From: Enterobacteria phage Sf101
Direction: 5' to 3' (one strand)
DNA: 38,742 nucleotides
Sequence record: KJ832078
Shown here: positions 1 to 26,434 of the stretch, in pieces
How positions within the stretch are numbered: position 1 is the first letter of the stretch
Layout: each line of letters begins with the position of its first letter
Made by a program: the position numbers and the translations under genes
The notes under the pieces: model-generated
Told to the model about the DNA's origin: nothing
What the model saw: the letters and a program-made list of their open reading frames with translations, nothing else
Databases searched by the model: none

Positions 1-429
1 ATGAATATGGCGACTGAACCAAAAGCTGGTCGCCCCTCTGATTATATGCCGGAGGTGGCTGACGATATCTGCTCGTTGCTTTCTTCTGGCGAAAGTTTGC
101 TGAAAGTATGTAAGCGTCCTGGTATGCCGGATAAGTCCACTGTTTTCCGCTGGTTGGCAAAGCATGAGGATTTTCGCGACAAGTACGCGAAGGCAACTGA
201 GGCACGAGCTGATTCTATTTTCGAAGAGATATTCGAAATTGCTGACAATGCGATTCCAGATGCTGCTGAGGTGGCAAAGGCAAGACTTCGCGTTGATACC
301 CGCAAATGGGCGCTGGCCCGAATGAATCCCCGTAAGTATGGCGACAAGGTAACTAACGAGCTTGTCGGTAAGGACGGCGGCGCAATTCAGATTGAAACAT
401 CACCGATGAGCACTCTATTCGGAAAATGA
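1..429 (+). CDS. Terminase small subunit (Sf6 gp1-like)
   Basis: 142-aa ORF at window start; translation (MATEPKAGRPSDYMPEVAD...) matches the Sf6-type small terminase as I recall it; ATGA overlap with the next gene at 426-429. True start may be the ATG at 7. Confidence 0.8.
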   Translation: MNMATEPKAGRPSDYMPEVADDICSLLSSGESLLKVCKRPGMPDKSTVFRWLAKHEDFRDKYAKATEARADSIFEEIFEIADNAIPDAAEVAKARLRVDTRKWALARMNPRKYGDKVTNELVGKDGGAIQIETSPMSTLFGK

Positions 430-1841
430 CCTCGATTAATCCTATCTTTGAACCGTTCATTGAGGCGCATCGCTACAAAGTCGCCAAAGGCGGTCGAGGT
501 AGCGGAAAGTCTTGGGCAATTGCGAGGCTGCTTGTTGAAGCGGCGCGTCGGCAGCCTGTGCGTATTCTCTGCGCTCGTGAACTGCAAAACAGTATCAGTG
601 ATTCGGTAATCCGGTTGCTTGAAGATACCATCGAGCGTGAAGGGTATTCGGCTGAGTTTGAAATTCAGCGTTCAATGATTCGTCATCTCGGAACGAATGC
701 TGAATTCATGTTCTACGGCATCAAAAACAACCCGACGAAGATTAAATCGCTCGAAGGCATTGATATCTGCTGGGTGGAAGAAGCGGAAGCGGTAACGAAG
801 GAATCATGGGATATCCTGATACCAACCATCCGCAAGCCGTTTTCCGAAATATGGGTGAGCTTTAACCCTAAGAACATCCTCGACGATACCTATCAGCGAT
901 TCGTCGTAAATCCTCCTGATGATATTTGTCTGCTGACGGTGAACTACACCGACAACCCGCACTTTCCTGAAGTTCTCCGTCTGGAGATGGAAGAGTGCAA
1001 ACGCAGAAATCCGACACTGTATCGTCACATCTGGCTGGGTGAGCCGGTAAGCGCAAGTGATATGGCAATCATCAAACGTGAATGGCTTGAAGCTGCAACC
1101 GATGCACACAAGAAACTCGGATGGAAAGCGAAAGGCGCTGTTGTTTCTGCACATGACCCGTCAGATACAGGGCCAGATGCTAAAGGTTACGCATCGCGCC
1201 ACGGCTCGGTAGTTAAGCGCATTGCCGAAGGTCTGCTGATGGACATCAACGATGGTGCTGACTGGGCTACTTCGCTGGCGATTGAAGACGGCGCTGACCA
1301 CTACCTGTGGGATGGTGATGGTGTTGGTGCCGGGCTACGCAGACAGACAACGGAAGCGTTCTCCGGCAAGAAAATCACCGCCACGATGTTCAAGGGCAGC
1401 GAATCGCCATTCGATGAAGATGCACCGTATCAGGCCGGAGCATGGGCCGATGAAGTCGTACAGGGCGACAACGTTCGCACTATTGGCGATGTATTCCGCA
1501 ATAAGCGAGCGCAATTCTATTACGCGCTGGCTGACAGGCTGTATCTGACATATCGGGCGGTTGTTCATGGTGAGTATGCAGACCCCGACGACATGCTGAG
1601 TTTCGACAAAGAAGCGATAGGCGAGAAGATGCTGGAGAAGCTGTTTGCAGAACTGACGCAGATTCAGCGCAAATTCAATAACAACGGGAAGCTGGAGCTA
1701 ATGACTAAGGTCGAAATGAAGCAGAAGCTCGGTATTCCATCTCCTAACCTGGCTGATGCGCTGATGATGTGTATGCATTGCCCGGAGTCGGCTGCGCAAC
1801 CCGACTATTCCAGTTACTCAATTCCTTGTGGTGTAGGTTGA
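426..1841 (+). CDS. Terminase large subunit
   Basis: 471 aa; N-terminal Walker-A-like VAKGGRGSGKS; position directly after terS and before portal; start overlaps the terS stop. Confidence 0.9.
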   Translation: MTSINPIFEPFIEAHRYKVAKGGRGSGKSWAIARLLVEAARRQPVRILCARELQNSISDSVIRLLEDTIEREGYSAEFEIQRSMIRHLGTNAEFMFYGIKNNPTKIKSLEGIDICWVEEAEAVTKESWDILIPTIRKPFSEIWVSFNPKNILDDTYQRFVVNPPDDICLLTVNYTDNPHFPEVLRLEMEECKRRNPTLYRHIWLGEPVSASDMAIIKREWLEAATDAHKKLGWKAKGAVVSAHDPSDTGPDAKGYASRHGSVVKRIAEGLLMDINDGADWATSLAIEDGADHYLWDGDGVGAGLRRQTTEAFSGKKITATMFKGSESPFDEDAPYQAGAWADEVVQGDNVRTIGDVFRNKRAQFYYALADRLYLTYRAVVHGEYADPDDMLSFDKEAIGEKMLEKLFAELTQIQRKFNNNGKLELMTKVEMKQKLGIPSPNLADALMMCMHCPESAAQPDYSSYSIPCGVG

Positions 1842-16461: not shown

Positions 16462-17634
16462 TTATTGATTGTTGTTTGTTAATGTGGGTATTAATTCTTT
16501 TACTAAAGTTGTGGTTTGTTTTGTTAATTTGATGAATGGCGTCTCTATTAATTTAAAAGTTAGGCATGATGTGAACGTAATAAGAAATGCAGTTGTGCTT
16601 ACCAGTATGATAAATGTATTTTCAGTGTAATTATTAGGAATAATCCACGTCATTAGGCAATAAAGGAATATCCCATGCAGAAGGTAAACGCTGTAGGTAG
16701 TTTCTCCTAGCTTTCTGGTTATATTTAATCTTAATATTCCATACAAATCACAACCTGATGCGATAATGATAAATGTTATTCCACAAAGAATCAGTGGTAG
16801 CGGTGCGTAAGTTGTTTTGAAATACGTCATTTCAAAAATCATTATCGCAGTTATTATAATTGGTGTTACTTTTGCTTTGGCAATTCCATTGACTATCTTT
16901 GATTTATTTAGCAAAAATGCCAGGAGCCCAAAAAGAAATGATACTATGTGTATTTTACTGAAAAATAAAATGAAAACAAATAGCGATATTGCGCTAATCA
17001 TAACCATGTAAATACTGACTTTTCTTTTTATGAGCGCGGAAATTACCGGAAGAGAAAAATAAAAGAACCATTCATATACAAGTGTCCATGTTACAGCGGC
17101 ATTGATAGTAAATGAATCTTTTACGTCATTAATGTTCGGCATACCTAGTGCAGTGAATGGCAACCACTTCATTATTGACACAAAAAGCTCTTCTGTGGAT
17201 ACCTGCATTCTCCATCCAGACTTAAAACCTACAATGATAAAAATGAGACATAGGCTAACTATGAACATTGGGGTTAATCGTAGTAATCTTGATACATAAA
17301 GCCTTGTCCAGTCCTGATCTCCAGAGATAATCTTTGAAAAGAACAGATAACCAGTAATCATAAAAAAGAATGACACACCAACTTGGCCTAAATTTGCTAA
17401 CAGATTTGATGAAGGTGCTTCCCATACTCCAGATGACAAGTATCCATTCCAAATTGCTGCGTGATGAATAAGCACGAAAATTGCTAAGAACCCCCGCATT
17501 CCATCTATTTGATTATTCCTGCCGTGCTCAACAAGATTTATTGGGGAAATTTTATCAAATAACCCCACAGCTAATAACGACATCAATATCACGGATGTTA
17601 TTAATAATAAACTGTTAATTTCAATCATATGCAT
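16462..17634 (-). CDS. Acyltransferase-3 family integral membrane protein (putative O-antigen acetyltransferase)
   Basis: 390 aa, multiple hydrophobic segments; N-terminal family signature (NQIDGMRGFLAIFVLIHHAAIW); strongly AT-rich relative to the rest of the genome; sits between tailspike and attP/int like oac in Sf6 and gtrABC in P22. Confidence 0.8.
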   Translation of the reverse strand: MHMIEINSLLLITSVILMSLLAVGLFDKISPINLVEHGRNNQIDGMRGFLAIFVLIHHAAIWNGYLSSGVWEAPSSNLLANLGQVGVSFFFMITGYLFFSKIISGDQDWTRLYVSRLLRLTPMFIVSLCLIFIIVGFKSGWRMQVSTEELFVSIMKWLPFTALGMPNINDVKDSFTINAAVTWTLVYEWFFYFSLPVISALIKRKVSIYMVMISAISLFVFILFFSKIHIVSFLFGLLAFLLNKSKIVNGIAKAKVTPIIITAIMIFEMTYFKTTYAPLPLILCGITFIIIASGCDLYGILRLNITRKLGETTYSVYLLHGIFLYCLMTWIIPNNYTENTFIILVSTTAFLITFTSCLTFKLIETPFIKLTKQTTTLVKELIPTLTNNNQ

Positions 17635-18097
17635 GCTCTATTACGCAATTAAAATTTCTCCAAGTATACTGACTTTTAGTTAATGATAATATAGTTATGT
17701 GTAACTGATGAAACAAAACGGAGACACACCAAGCTTTGCACTGGATTGCAAGGCTTTGCGCTCTTCGATAGTGGTTAAGGTGGGTCACTCCACCTTTTCA
17801 TCAATCCAGTCCGCCAACCACTGCATCATTTCTCTGCGCTTAACGTAGCGGATGCCTCACTATCACATAGTGATGGTTCATTACTGCTTTGTAGAATGGA
17901 CAGAGAACTGAGGATAAAAAGATATCCCAAAACCCCAAAAGCTCATCTTTAGGATTTGCAGAAAGGTAGTCATGAACAGATACCTGCGCATGAAGACGGA
18001 ACTAGTCCAGATGTGATATTTGTGGTGATCGCATACATCATCAACGATGCTCGTTATGGTGAGTTTGATGACTACCCACTGAGGTGAAAATTGTGTT

Positions 18098-18119
18098 GTG
18101 TACCAAATTGTGTACCAAA
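18098..18119 (+). repeat. Candidate integrase arm-type sites (2 x GTGTACCAAA)
   Basis: Tandem ttGTGTACCAAAttGTGTACCAAAtt at 18098-18107 and 18110-18119. Confidence 0.45.
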
Positions 18120-18347
18120 TTAAAATCATAAACCATGAAACCCTTACTCATGGCAGTCTCAGGCTGGGTGCGCGTAATCGTGAAAGAGGAAGGTAGGTTG
18201 TTTATCTGTGCCTGTCATTGTCTAGCATTGTCCACTGTAGTTAATTAACTGTCTGTTATAACTCGAAAAACAACCCTTTTTTAACCTGAGTATGTCTACG
18301 AACGTCAAATATAGTTGTTTACTGTGCGCTGTTGTCCATGTGATATT

Positions 18348-18392
18348 GTGTACCAGATGTGTACCAAACCATTATTTTTGAGCGTACCAAAT
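18348..18392 (+). repeat. Candidate integrase arm-type sites (3 copies) just upstream of int
   Basis: GTGTACCAGA (18348-18357), GTGTACCAAA (18359-18368), GCGTACCAAA (18383-18392); int ATG at 18400. Confidence 0.45.
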
Positions 18393-18399
18393 ATTATTT

Positions 18400-19578
18400 A
18401 TGGCTATAAGCGACACAAAACTGCGTACTATTTATGGTAAACCATATTCGGGCCCACAAGAAGTGGCTGATGCCGATGGCCTCAGCGTACGAATTTCACC
18501 GAAGGGGGTCATCCAGTTCCAGTACCGCTATCGCTGGCATGGCAAGCCTAATCGACTTGGGCTTGGTCGATACCCATCCCTGTCTTTGAAGGATGCCAGA
18601 CAGATCACTGCTGACTTGCGAAAGCTCTATTTCTCAGGAACGGATCCACGCACTTATTTTGAAGAGAAGGTGGAGAACTCCATGACGGTCGCCCAGTGTC
18701 TCGACTACTGGTTCGACAACTACGTCTCTACAACTCTCAGAGAAAAGACCCAGGCACTTTACCGATCAACGGTTATGAAGCGCATGCATGACGCCTTCCC
18801 TAATCGTCCGGCATCTTCTATCACGGTTAAGCAATGGGTTGACCTGCTTACCGAAGAAGAAAGAGATAATCCACGCCGAGCAAGGCAGGTGCTAAGTCAA
18901 CTAAGATCAGCAATAAGTTGGTGCATGCGGCGTCAGTTGATAGATAGTTGCGCAATTATGAGCATCCAGCCAAGGGACTTCGGCTCACGCGCTGAGGTAG
19001 GGGATCGGGTACTGTCGTATCACGAACTGGCTAAGATTTGGCTTGCTATTGAAAGAAGCCGTGCTTCTACGTCAAATAAGCTGCTTCATCAGATGCTTAT
19101 GCTGTGGGGGGCGAGGCTCTCAGAGCTTAGGCTGGCAACAAAGACAGAATTTGACCTGCTGGACAACGTATGGACCGTACCGAAAGAGCATAGCAAGATG
19201 GGCAATGTTATCCGCCGTCCAATCTTCGAACAAATTAAGCCTTTCCTCGATAAAGCCATGACAACGTACAATGATGTTCTTTTCCCTGGAGAAGACATAA
19301 ACAAACCGATCAGCATCGCTGCAGCCAACCGATTCGTAAATAGAATAAGGGGAGGGATGGATATAGGTTACTGGCGAACACATGATTTCAGAAGAACGCT
19401 TGTTACACGTCTGTCCGAGATGAATGTCGAGCCTCATGTTACTGAGCGAATGCTCGGTCATGAACTTGGCGGGATAATGTCCGTATACAATAAACACGAC
19501 TGGATAGAGGCTCAGCGCAAAGCGTATGAGCTTCACGCTGATAAATTGTTCTGGCACATCAGGAGCATTTCTGATTAA
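18400..19578 (+). CDS. int: Tyrosine integrase
   Basis: 392 aa; C-terminal catalytic-type motifs (GARLSEL, HDFRRT, LGHE...SVYNKHD); preceded by arm-type repeats. Confidence 0.9.
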   Translation: MAISDTKLRTIYGKPYSGPQEVADADGLSVRISPKGVIQFQYRYRWHGKPNRLGLGRYPSLSLKDARQITADLRKLYFSGTDPRTYFEEKVENSMTVAQCLDYWFDNYVSTTLREKTQALYRSTVMKRMHDAFPNRPASSITVKQWVDLLTEEERDNPRRARQVLSQLRSAISWCMRRQLIDSCAIMSIQPRDFGSRAEVGDRVLSYHELAKIWLAIERSRASTSNKLLHQMLMLWGARLSELRLATKTEFDLLDNVWTVPKEHSKMGNVIRRPIFEQIKPFLDKAMTTYNDVLFPGEDINKPISIAAANRFVNRIRGGMDIGYWRTHDFRRTLVTRLSEMNVEPHVTERMLGHELGGIMSVYNKHDWIEAQRKAYELHADKLFWHIRSISD

Positions 19579-19750
19579 CGCCACCGTTAAGAATCCACCC
19601 CTCAACAGCTTCACGAAGGTATGATTTGGGGTGGGTTCTGACTGGCTTCGGAAATCCGTGCCGTTTGGTATAGTTCCAGATTGTCTGACGTGATGAAACA
19701 CCGAGCTTGTTCATCACTTCTTTCTCAGGAATCAGGCTGGTATCGGTCAT
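19559..19750 (-). CDS. AlpA/Xis-family HTH protein (putative excisionase / regulator)
   Basis: 63 aa; MTDTSLIPEKEVMNKLGVSSRQTIWNYTKRHGFPKPV resembles the AlpA-type helix-turn-helix; convergent with int and overlapping its 3' end by 20 bp. Confidence 0.65.
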   Translation of the reverse strand: MTDTSLIPEKEVMNKLGVSSRQTIWNYTKRHGFPKPVRTHPKSYLREAVEGWILNGGVNQKCS

Positions 19751-19850
19751 CTTAATTCTCCAGGCAAAAATAAACCGCCATATAGCGGCTCTATCAGATA
19801 TGTACAGGCCTCATCGAGTGTGAGGCGGTGTGATTTCTTTATTTCCACTC

Positions 19851-20066
19851 TTAATGTTTGTCAGTGAATGGTTTCTCCATCTCCATTAATGCCTTATTCA
19901 TCTCATTTCGTAACTCTATAGCCATCCTGACGGCTACAACTTGTGCAGGATGTCGGTTAATTGCTGGAGAATATCGTCGGGAGCGAAGGATTGAGAAAAC
20001 AAAGATAATGCAAGCAACTATCTGAATTGCATTGCATATTATTGATACAATGTGGATTGCAGCCAT
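19851..20066 (-). CDS. Small hydrophobic protein (one predicted TM helix)
   Basis: 71 aa, hydrophobic N-terminus IHIVSIICNAIQIVACIIFVFSIL; lies between the PL-operon terminator and alpA. ORF-level evidence only. Confidence 0.3.
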   Translation of the reverse strand: MAAIHIVSIICNAIQIVACIIFVFSILRSRRYSPAINRHPAQVVAVRMAIELRNEMNKALMEMEKPFTDKH

Positions 20067-20080
20067 CTACTACCCCAAAT

Positions 20081-20100
20081 AAAAAACCGCCATCAGGCGG
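20081..20100 (-). terminator. Rho-independent terminator at distal end of the early-left operon
   Basis: CCGCC-ATCA-GGCGG hairpin (20087-20100) with A6 on the plus strand (T6 on the minus strand) immediately 3' of the stem. Confidence 0.55.
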
Positions 20101-20166
20101 CTTGGTGTTCTTTCAGTTCTTCAATTCGAATATTGGTTACATTGTTTTCATATATGAATAAATAAA

Positions 20167-20379
20167 TTAGCTTTTTTCGTTGCCTTCGCGTTCTTTATTA
20201 ATTTTGACAAAATCGTTTTTACCACGCTCTCCAAATGCGTCTTTAGAGTCGTTGTATCCGCAATCGCAGCACACATAATCATCAGACCATCCACGCATTG
20301 TTTTTTCTTTTGCAATATTTCCAGAACCGCATTTTGGACAAGACATATCACTACCTCCAAAGCATGAGTGAGATGACAA
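20167..20379 (-). CDS. Zinc-ribbon small protein
   Basis: 70 aa with CPKCG...CCDCG cysteine pairs; last gene before the terminator. Confidence 0.5.
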   Translation of the reverse strand: MSSHSCFGGSDMSCPKCGSGNIAKEKTMRGWSDDYVCCDCGYNDSKDAFGERGKNDFVKINKEREGNEKS

Positions 20380-20442
20380 CGTAACATTGATTGGAGATTA
20401 ACAATAGATTGCTGATGTAAAAGATATGTATAAGCTTAGCTA

Positions 20443-21009
20443 TCAAAGGGGAGGCTCTGGTAGCGGCATCCAGTGTGACGGTTTCCACGACGCACCAGGA
20501 ATTATCCACCCATCATTAGCGTCAGGATGACCCGGGATGTAAGTCGCCCATTTCATTCGCCAGTCACCTTTCCTGTCAAACTCCACGGCAACAAGAACGG
20601 CTGTTTTGGTATCCGGCATTCGCTCACTACAGCTTATCCAACCATCCGGAGTTACCGGAGAGTTGCCCGATAGCTCGTTCAACTTGTAAGTTTGGCTTAC
20701 GAGTTCGGCTTCCAGTTCTGCTATGCGCTTTTTTGCTGCTTCCAGCTCGCCAAGCAGCGCCAAGACGGTAGCCGGATTGGCTGCAGCGATGAATTCAGCA
20801 TTGGCCTGCTGTTCCATTTGGAAACCTTCATCGAAACCGCTTTCTGGATGCGCTCCTTCAATTCTGCAAATGGGAATATATCCAACAACTTCACGATGAA
20901 TTAGCGCATCACCAGCATCAAATCTCTCCTCTCCATATTCGAGCGACCACACACCACACGTTGCTTTCTCCGCCGCTTCACGCAGCGCCTGTTTGTTGAT
21001 GTTGCTCAT
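20443..21009 (-). CDS. Hypothetical early protein (DUF551-like C-terminus)
   Basis: 188 aa; C-terminal ...WKPSHWMPLPEPP resembles the DUF551 ending common in lambdoid Ea-region proteins (from memory); start overlaps the upstream gene's stop. Confidence 0.5.
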   Translation of the reverse strand: MSNINKQALREAAEKATCGVWSLEYGEERFDAGDALIHREVVGYIPICRIEGAHPESGFDEGFQMEQQANAEFIAAANPATVLALLGELEAAKKRIAELEAELVSQTYKLNELSGNSPVTPDGWISCSERMPDTKTAVLVAVEFDRKGDWRMKWATYIPGHPDANDGWIIPGASWKPSHWMPLPEPPL

Positions 21010-26107: not shown

Positions 26108-26434
26108 TCAAATAAGTGGTTTGCTGCCTAATTTCATTTTCTGGCGACCAACACAAGTCACACCCATTTCACTGCGTGGCTTGCTGTACCATGTGCGCTG
26201 ATTCTTGCGCTCAATACGTTGCAGGTTGCTTTCAATCTGTTCGTGGTATTCAGCCAGCACCGTAAGGTCTATCGGATTCAGTGCGCTTTCTACTCGTGAT
26301 TTCGGTTTGCGATTCAGCGAGAGAATAGGGCGGTTAACTGGTTTTGCGCTTACCCCAACTAACAGGGGATTTGCTGCTTTCCATTGAGCCTGTTTCTCTG
26401 CGCGACGTTCGCGGCGGCGTGTTTGTGCATCCAT
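26108..26434 (-). CDS. N: Antitermination protein N (lambda type)
   Basis: 108 aa with arginine-rich motif MDAQTRRRERRAEKQAQWKAANPLLVG...; near-identical to lambda N as recalled. Confidence 0.9.
   Translation of the reverse strand: MDAQTRRRERRAEKQAQWKAANPLLVGVSAKPVNRPILSLNRKPKSRVESALNPIDLTVLAEYHEQIESNLQRIERKNQRTWYSKPRSEMGVTCVGRQKMKLGSKPLI

Follow-up and report, generated by a model that had tools for sequence, protein, structure and literature searches.

The window analysed here is the whole 38,742-nucleotide sequence record KJ832078 of Enterobacteria phage Sf101, and this report concerns the part of it that holds the integrase gene, int, an AlpA-like gene on the opposite strand and a 71-codon open reading frame (ORF), ORF71. 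We consider it quite likely that this region belongs to a lambdoid, P22-like mosaic phage, in which it forms the integration and excision end of the leftward early operon, and that it carries a module of the type described in the Shiga-toxin phage Phi24B (vB_EcoP_24B). The int/xis module is an ordinary one of this known kind, and ORF71 is a genuine small-protein gene of rare occurrence. According to the ORF list and the sequence, int occupies positions 18400-19578 of the plus strand and encodes 392 amino acids (aa). The AlpA-like ORF (19559-19750, minus strand; hereafter alpA) encodes 63 aa, a probable excisionase or recombination directionality factor (RDF), and its 3' end converges with that of int in a shared stretch of 20 bp (19559-19578). 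ORF71 lies at 19851-20066 on the minus strand and is annotated here as the gene of a small single-pass membrane protein, phrog_15342. A sequence-only reading of the same DNA had stated that int reads away from attP, that the AlpA/Xis-like gene overlaps the int 3' end by 20 bp and that the two transcripts are antisense to each other there; the first two statements are borne out below, and the third follows from the geometry. The same reading called this geometry unusual, which it is not: the int/xis layout has been published for Phi24B (Fogg et al. 2011, PMC3064807) and the module occurs in 421 phage records.

Both recombination proteins of the window have counterparts in Phi24B. The window Int is 57% identical to Int-Phi24B over 391 aa (E = 2e-171), contains Arm-DNA-bind_3 (PF13356, E = 8e-18) and Phage_integrase (PF00589, E = 1e-16) domains, and matches phrog_1. 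The int gene encodes a P4-like tyrosine integrase of type 2851, for which sbcB is the integration site. Xis-Phi24B aligns with the 63-aa protein at 47% identity (E = 4e-19), and the latter matches phrog_66, 'excisionase and transcriptional regulator', with an E-value of 1.9e-8. A search of NCBIfam with this protein yielded no match, and a sequence search of the PDB yielded matches only at E > 0.2. Judged by these alignments, it is a probable excisionase with an AlpA-like winged helix. In Phi24B, int is inverted relative to lambda and is transcribed from its own promoter, mapped by 5' rapid amplification of cDNA ends; this transcription is constitutive in lysogens, independent of CI and not repressed by it (PMC3064807). 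The Xis of Phi24B was described as a new 8-kDa AlpA-like protein, tied to PF05930 by HHpred only, whose gene lies on the pL strand and adjoins the int 3' end; Int and Xis together resolved attL × attR, and Int alone did not (PMC3064807).

The convergent overlap recurs in other phages. In the Phi24B record, int (236-1405, plus strand) and xis (1389-1571, minus strand) overlap by 17 bp. Using tblastn, we found matches over both genes in phage 86, Klebsiella phage ST16-OXA48phi5.3, Pantoea phage AH07 and Hafnia phage yong2. The overlap measures 17 bp in phage 86 and Pantoea AH07, as in Phi24B, and 20 bp in Klebsiella ST16-OXA48phi5.3; four lineages, with Int identities of 51-82% between them, thus keep an overlap of 17-20 bp, and the region upstream of int is alignable across these lineages. 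With a P4-like Int homologue, an int gene that adjoins attP and runs opposite to the pL operon, and a convergent, overlapping Xis homologue, the window module is a sister specificity type of the characterised Phi24B system. Closer to the window, the 421 phage records share its DNA from attP through alpA at 97-99% identity; they include phages 2851, 1717, mEp234, HK140 and HK544 and many Stx1, Stx2a and Stx2c phages. These records label the integrase, the 'AlpA family' protein and 'attP type 2851'.

The attachment site was placed by comparison with annotated phages and with a lysogen. The 13-bp duplication annotated in Stx phage records falls at window positions 18173-18185, and the homology between phage and lysogen LSC52 begins at 18173, matching it. 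Therefore, attP lies 5' of the int start at 18400, int is transcribed away from attP, and the attP core, CGTAATCGTGAAA (approximately 18173-18185), is where crossover with sbcB takes place. The int/AlpA module adjoins sbcB in E. coli lysogens. The 5' end of sbcB is the integration point, and the P' arm of the phage encodes a replacement for the N-terminus of SbcB, MTGTDKQPTFLFHDY (18173-18218, minus strand; positions 1384-1429 of L005, one of the RefSeq E. coli genomes considered below). In LSC52 the annotated sbcB start falls in phage DNA; the sbcB promoter of the lysogen must therefore be phage-borne and divergent from int.

Direct repeats with a GTAC core flank the attP core and also stand just ahead of the int ATG. 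Two tandem TGTGTACCAAAT repeats, found by repeat search on the plus strand at 18095-18120, lie inside the attP region annotated in HK140 and are candidate arm-type sites for Int in the P arm of attP. Three more repeats with a GTACC core (18345-18392, plus strand) stand 8-55 nt 5' of the int ATG and overlap a segment homologous to the pInt region of Phi24B. The position of the three GTAC-core repeats just before the int start is invariant in five diverged relatives, and we regard them as candidate arm-type Int sites that overlap the promoter region. The upstream region of int aligns with the Phi24B pInt region and contains no consensus promoter. Indeed, σ70-like promoter matches numbered zero on either strand of 18000-20500, as compared with 5.1 ± 2.2 in shuffled sequences. 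Because int needs a promoter there, that promoter is evidently non-consensus, as has been reported for Phi24B pInt.

On the other side of the overlap, the genes belong to the pL operon. All genes from N, which begins at 26434, down to alpA, which ends at 19559, are on the minus strand, in the order erf-ssb-...-ORF71-alpA, and alpA is therefore the last gene of the operon. The N-like antiterminator gene occupies 26108-26434 of the minus strand; erf and ssb were also identified, and cI and cII lie beyond. A pattern scan of 18000-20500 returned seven terminator-like sites, against 2.1 ± 1.7 in shuffled sequences; this excess, the sharing of the first terminator with other phages and the conservation of the overlap and of ORF71 in diverged relatives place the features beyond chance. 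The first intrinsic terminator of interest (20103-20084, minus strand; -14.3 kcal/mol, z = -2.5) consists of AAGCCGCC-TGAT-GGCGGTTT followed by TTTATTT, and corresponds to the hairpin that the sequence-only reading had noticed ahead of the 71-aa ORF. It ends 17 nt 5' of the ORF71 ATG, with a GGGG Shine-Dalgarno (SD) sequence in the gap. Lambda has the identical sequence over this terminator and the approximately 50 nt before it, and the terminator is common to P22 and HK620. In lambda, the identical hairpin lies 30 nt before the xis ATG and has the stop codon of orf55 in its loop. The records of P22 and phage L annotate the element as 'terminator', and its lambda copy is listed as the predicted terminator t5 (Bloch et al., PMC4195576 Table 4).

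A second intrinsic terminator (19791-19772, minus strand; -10.8 kcal/mol), annotated as rho-independent in HK140, lies 21 nt before the alpA ATG, and the SD sequence of alpA, GGAGA, comes after it. An analogous terminator is predicted 32 nt before xis in Phi24B, and the torI cassette of ETEC1739 also opens with a terminator. On these comparisons, a terminator directly before the RDF gene is a recurring design, and the presence of two such gates in series here would be a by-product of mosaic assembly.

The arrangement suggests how the region may operate. The P4-like integrase would be transcribed alone from the spacer next to attP, away from attP, and the small AlpA/MerR-like winged-helix excisionase would be encoded on the opposite strand by the last gene of the pL operon. 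Because the terminators stand directly before the ribosome-binding sites of ORF71 and alpA, we infer that both genes are gated: Xis and the ORF71 product would be made only when N-modified RNA polymerase from pL passes both terminators. Upon induction, RDF synthesis would switch excision on, with Int supplied independently. ORF71, which lacks a promoter of its own, is probably expressed together with Xis from N-antiterminated pL transcripts, and its position suggests that this transcription is early. In the read-through RNA (20070-20112, minus strand), the minimum-energy fold lengthens the terminator stem and pairs the GGGG SD sequence of ORF71 with upstream CACC/CCAA. Such pairing could damp translation of ORF71. 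Read-through from pL beyond alpA and along the antisense strand of int would reach sbcB in the sense direction.

That ORF71 might not be a gene at all, one of the options raised by the sequence-only reading, is contradicted by its pattern of conservation. ORF71 matches phrog_15342, a family of unknown function, end to end, and is intact at 71 codons in all eight aligned variants. An exhaustive HMMER search of 1.84 billion representative proteins added a single new homologue, the 74-aa product of an E. coli prophage gene (P0004; 46% identity, E = 3.5e-11). Between ORF71 and P0004, synonymous sites are saturated (proportion of synonymous differences, 0.87) and the proportion of nonsynonymous differences is 0.33; differences at the three codon positions number 28, 20 and 43. 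The other reading frames are closed in both genes, and each copy has an SD sequence. P0004 also occupies the same slot as ORF71, as the last gene ahead of xis and int. Its start and the stop of the gene before it overlap, and the ATG of a P22-type xis lies 2 nt past its stop. Codon 44 (19936-19934) specifies Val (GTA) in the window, Glu (GAA) in the seven other DNA variants and in protein clusters P0001-P0003, and Arg in P0004.

The gene is rare. Full-length ORF71 DNA was found only in IME10 among 50,697 phage records and in 69 of 5426 complete E. coli genomes, and IME10 was likewise the sole match when the protein was compared with the same phage records using tblastn. Single-sequence and profile searches of a collection of 5.8 billion proteins recovered the same four clusters only, and no relative emerged when genome contigs were scanned with the ORF71 alignment. 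None of the 5426 complete E. coli genomes carries the P0004 lineage. The family thus comprises only two diverged lineages, all from E. coli, and ORF71 gave no match in Pfam, NCBIfam or PADLOC. ORF71 is a genuine, rare accessory gene. On the pL strand it stands after the recombination genes and before xis, and it is dispensable, being missing from nearly all phages with the same int/alpA module. By position, ORF71 fits the exo-xis, or 'ea', class of accessory genes.

The sequence on either side of ORF71 records how the gene reached its present place. Downstream, the 40-50 nt or so between its stop codon and the second terminator hold what is left of a P22-type xis 5' end (19796-19848, minus strand; ..SHRLTLDEACTYL..), as aligned with the intact xis behind the ORF71 homologue in L012 and with that of phage L. 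Past the ORF71 stop, the window reads ..AATCACACCGCCTCACACTCGATGAGGCCTGTACATATCT.., a sequence homologous to codons 1-15 of the P22-type xis behind P0004 (MESHSLTLDEACAFL..). In ETEC1739, the unit of ORF71 plus xis stub is joined to a terminator and torI, and IME10, which has an IntS integrase and probably an RDF cassette of the TorI type, has an equivalent junction. From the homology of the stub and these two junctions, we conclude that ORF71 was originally packed, in translational terms too, directly against a P22-type xis and was later transferred, with the stub, to a place before other RDF cassettes. The xis stub marks a mosaic junction. This history also accounts for a 33-aa ORF at 19747-19848, which we rejected as a gene since it is the xis 5' stub running through the terminator, and for a hairpin on the plus strand, at 19808-19826 within the stub. 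Upstream, a block at 20078-20150 (minus strand) that contains the 3' end of an orf55-like gene and the first terminator is 97-100% identical to P22, HK620, lambda and others, and is a mosaic boundary. The second terminator (19791-19772), the P22-type xis stub and the GTAC-core repeats were absent from the sequence-only reading.

The ORF71 product is predicted to be membrane-bound. Its N-terminal hydrophobic segment, recognised in the sequence-only reading as a single helix, has a Kyte-Doolittle maximum of 2.66 over 19 residues, and AlphaFold2 modelled a helix at residues 2-31, a basic loop (RSRRY) and a helix at residues 40-64 (mean predicted local distance difference test score, 78). A Foldseek search of BFVD with this model gave no match, and a two-helix model is in any case uninformative in such a search. 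The model is best explained by a bitopic inner-membrane protein with a transmembrane helix and a cytoplasmic amphipathic helix; by the positive-inside rule, its topology is probably N-out/C-in. Residues invariant between ORF71 and P0004 include H5, S8, N12, Q15, C19, F22, I26 and S29, whose spacing of 3-4 places them on one face of the transmembrane helix. The conserved polar stripe (H5, S8, N12, Q15 and C19) suggests a helix-helix interface. Our best guess as to its role is that of an early-lytic effector in the membrane that would either self-associate or bind a membrane protein of the host, and we favour this over a lysogenic-conversion or exclusion factor.

Two other readings concern the int/xis end. 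In one, the convergent, overlapping transcripts would act as a switch through mutual interference. Leaky xis would be silenced in the lysogen by int mRNA that continues through alpA, whether by antisense pairing or polymerase collision, and after induction strong pL transcription through alpA into the antisense strand of int would shut int off. The geometry does make antisense transcripts unavoidable, with 20 bp shared by the coding regions. No good plus-strand terminator, in particular no convincing one, precedes approximately position 19808 after the int stop, so that int mRNA probably extends across alpA as an antisense transcript, and read-through from pL would likewise yield RNA antisense to int. 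The overlap is also conserved across genera, in E. coli, Klebsiella and Pantoea phages, and Phi24B int is constitutively transcribed in lysogens. However, RNA-seq of Phi24B placed int among 14 phage genes unaltered on induction, when the RNA of most phage genes increased by a factor of more than 20 (PMC4651098); this result speaks against strong interference. Compaction and common descent can account for the overlap, since the bases conserved in it specify residues that are conserved in each protein (GG(V/I)N in Xis, FWH in Int). Moreover, the two terminators before alpA already keep xis silent without N, and since excision needs Int, shutting int down at induction would be counterproductive early. 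A literature search on control of int/xis by convergent transcription found no paper. We consider such a switch unlikely. A fuller version, in which the overlap imposes obligate int/xis antisense pairing that silences leaky xis, pL read-through reprograms int and ORF71 is a new membrane effector deliberately co-gated with excision, seems to us distinctly unlikely. It is improbable, too, that the 63-aa protein is mainly a regulator of int transcription, like AlpA of CP4-57, in place of a directionality factor. Database records do call it an 'AlpA family regulatory protein', its match to Pfam AlpA is weak, and RDFs such as TorI also repress int (PMC2951348). Against this, it shares 47% identity with the Phi24B Xis, a protein whose co-expression with Int led to resolution of attL × attR, and the gene of the 63-aa protein is downstream of and convergent with int, not upstream and co-directional.

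The remaining readings concern ORF71, for which the sequence-only reading had proposed an exclusion protein or a toxin-like peptide; we disfavour both, as there is no room for a promoter and the gene lies inside the pL operon. A prophage-expressed 'moron' conferring superinfection exclusion or another conversion phenotype would suit a small, membrane-anchored, terminator-flanked gene that most otherwise identical modules lack (it occurs in IME10 and the 69 E. coli genomes) and that travels as a cassette between RDF contexts. A terminator does lie downstream, but the ATG follows the upstream terminator by just 17 nt and no promoter-like site was found; P0004 is embedded in the pL operon; and PADLOC returned no match. 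There is, in our estimate, little chance that ORF71 is such a gene. Still smaller is the chance that it encodes a type I toxin-like peptide or that the region is non-coding, as a small RNA or a spacer with a regulatory role. A hydrophobic N-terminus with a charged tail behind it is reminiscent of small membrane toxins, the Prokaryotic Genome Annotation Pipeline (PGAP) leaves the ORF uncalled and the family is very narrow. These points are countered by the coding-type conservation against a 46%-identical homologue of similar length (71 versus 74 aa) in the same position, with all other frames closed in both genes. In addition, no promoter for the ORF itself or for an antisense RNA was found on either strand of 18000-20500, and an Rfam scan of 17600-20500 at E ≤ 1 gave no match.

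Several observations weigh against our preferred account of a Phi24B-type module at the end of the pL operon, with ORF71 as an accessory gene of that operon. For this phage the account is drawn from sequence alone, and both terminators are likewise predictions. The lambda copy of the first terminator is presumably, though not certainly, the mapped terminator tL3. The match of the 63-aa protein to Pfam Phage_AlpA (PF05930; 17.8 bits, E = 0.0032) falls below the gathering threshold of 21, and 'AlpA-like' is therefore a label of resemblance only. The int promoter region contains no consensus match, and the candidate hexamers are weak. PGAP leaves an interval of approximately 340 bp that includes ORF71 uncalled in all six RefSeq E. 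coli genomes inspected (L005 and L007-L011); this unannotated interval spans from the RDF gene to an orf55-like or eaG gene, and ORF71 is intact in all six. Finally, the argument from the conserved stripe depends on the single comparison of ORF71 with P0004.

Three neighbouring genes were also noted. Immediately 5' of the first terminator, positions 20167-20379 (minus strand) encode a 70-aa zinc-ribbon protein that matches phrog_2945 and has weak Lar (restriction alleviation) and HVO_2753-like matches. The 188-aa ORF at 20443-21009 (minus strand) fuses an Ead/Ea22-like N-terminal part to a C-terminal DUF551 domain and illustrates the domain shuffling typical of the 'ea' region. At the other end, a 390-aa Acyl_transf_3 protein (16462-17634, minus strand) adjoins attP and is probably the product of a lysogenic conversion gene of the O-antigen acetyltransferase type, as in Sf6.

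Beyond annotation, the finding matters little. It assigns the sbcB-integrating 'type 2851' module of many Stx1, Stx2a and Stx2c phages to the class of Phi24B, where Int escapes control by the repressor; in Phi24B itself this uncoupling has been connected with multiple lysogeny. A further addition is a gene for a small membrane protein, phrog_15342, left uncalled by PGAP in the six RefSeq genomes inspected. If the antisense relation or the double terminator gate does tune excision, the model of the RDF switch would be refined for a large group of prophages.

Among known systems, the lambda exo-xis or b-region genes (orf60a, orf61, orf63, orf73, ea22, ea8.5 and orf55) offer the nearest parallel to ORF71, which occupies the same part of the pL operon, is dispensable in that most relatives lack it, and stands behind the terminator that precedes xis in lambda. 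Unlike them, it is membrane-anchored, and it has no sequence relationship to any of them. The type-2851 phages 2851, 1717, mEp234, HK140 and HK544 and the Stx1/Stx2 phages carry essentially the same DNA from attP through alpA and its terminator, but fuse this module straight to an orf55-like or other 'ea' gene, without the insert of ORF71 and xis stub.

More broadly, an int gene that is read away from att by a promoter of its own, independently of the RDF gene, is an established paradigm. An int promoter overlapping attL, with transcription of int and the RDF gene uncoupled, is a class described by Panis et al. (2010), in whose survey the class with a tRNA followed by the integrase in the same orientation was the most frequent, with 736 of 1273 pairs (PMC2951348). 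The IntS-TorI module of KplE1, HK620 and Sf6 resembles that of the window in having the int promoter in the att region, Int and RDF transcription uncoupled, and RDF expression as the switch for excision (PMC2951348). A terminator precedes torI as well, and ORF71 is also found 5' of torI. In HK620, however, attP lies between co-directional xis and int, which consequently come to lie at opposite ends of the prophage, whereas here int and xis are adjacent and convergent.

The Phi24B system is of another specificity type: the window module integrates in the 5' end of sbcB, has an overlap of 20 rather than 17 bp and carries ORF71, which Phi24B lacks, and its proteins are known from sequence, those of Phi24B from experiment as well. 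The two nevertheless have the same plan. Each has an arm-binding, P4-like Int whose gene adjoins attP and is inverted relative to the pL operon; each has a small AlpA-like Xis of about 60 aa, encoded on the pL strand in convergent overlap with the int 3' end; and in each a predicted terminator lies just 5' of xis and GTAC-core repeats lie ahead of the int start.

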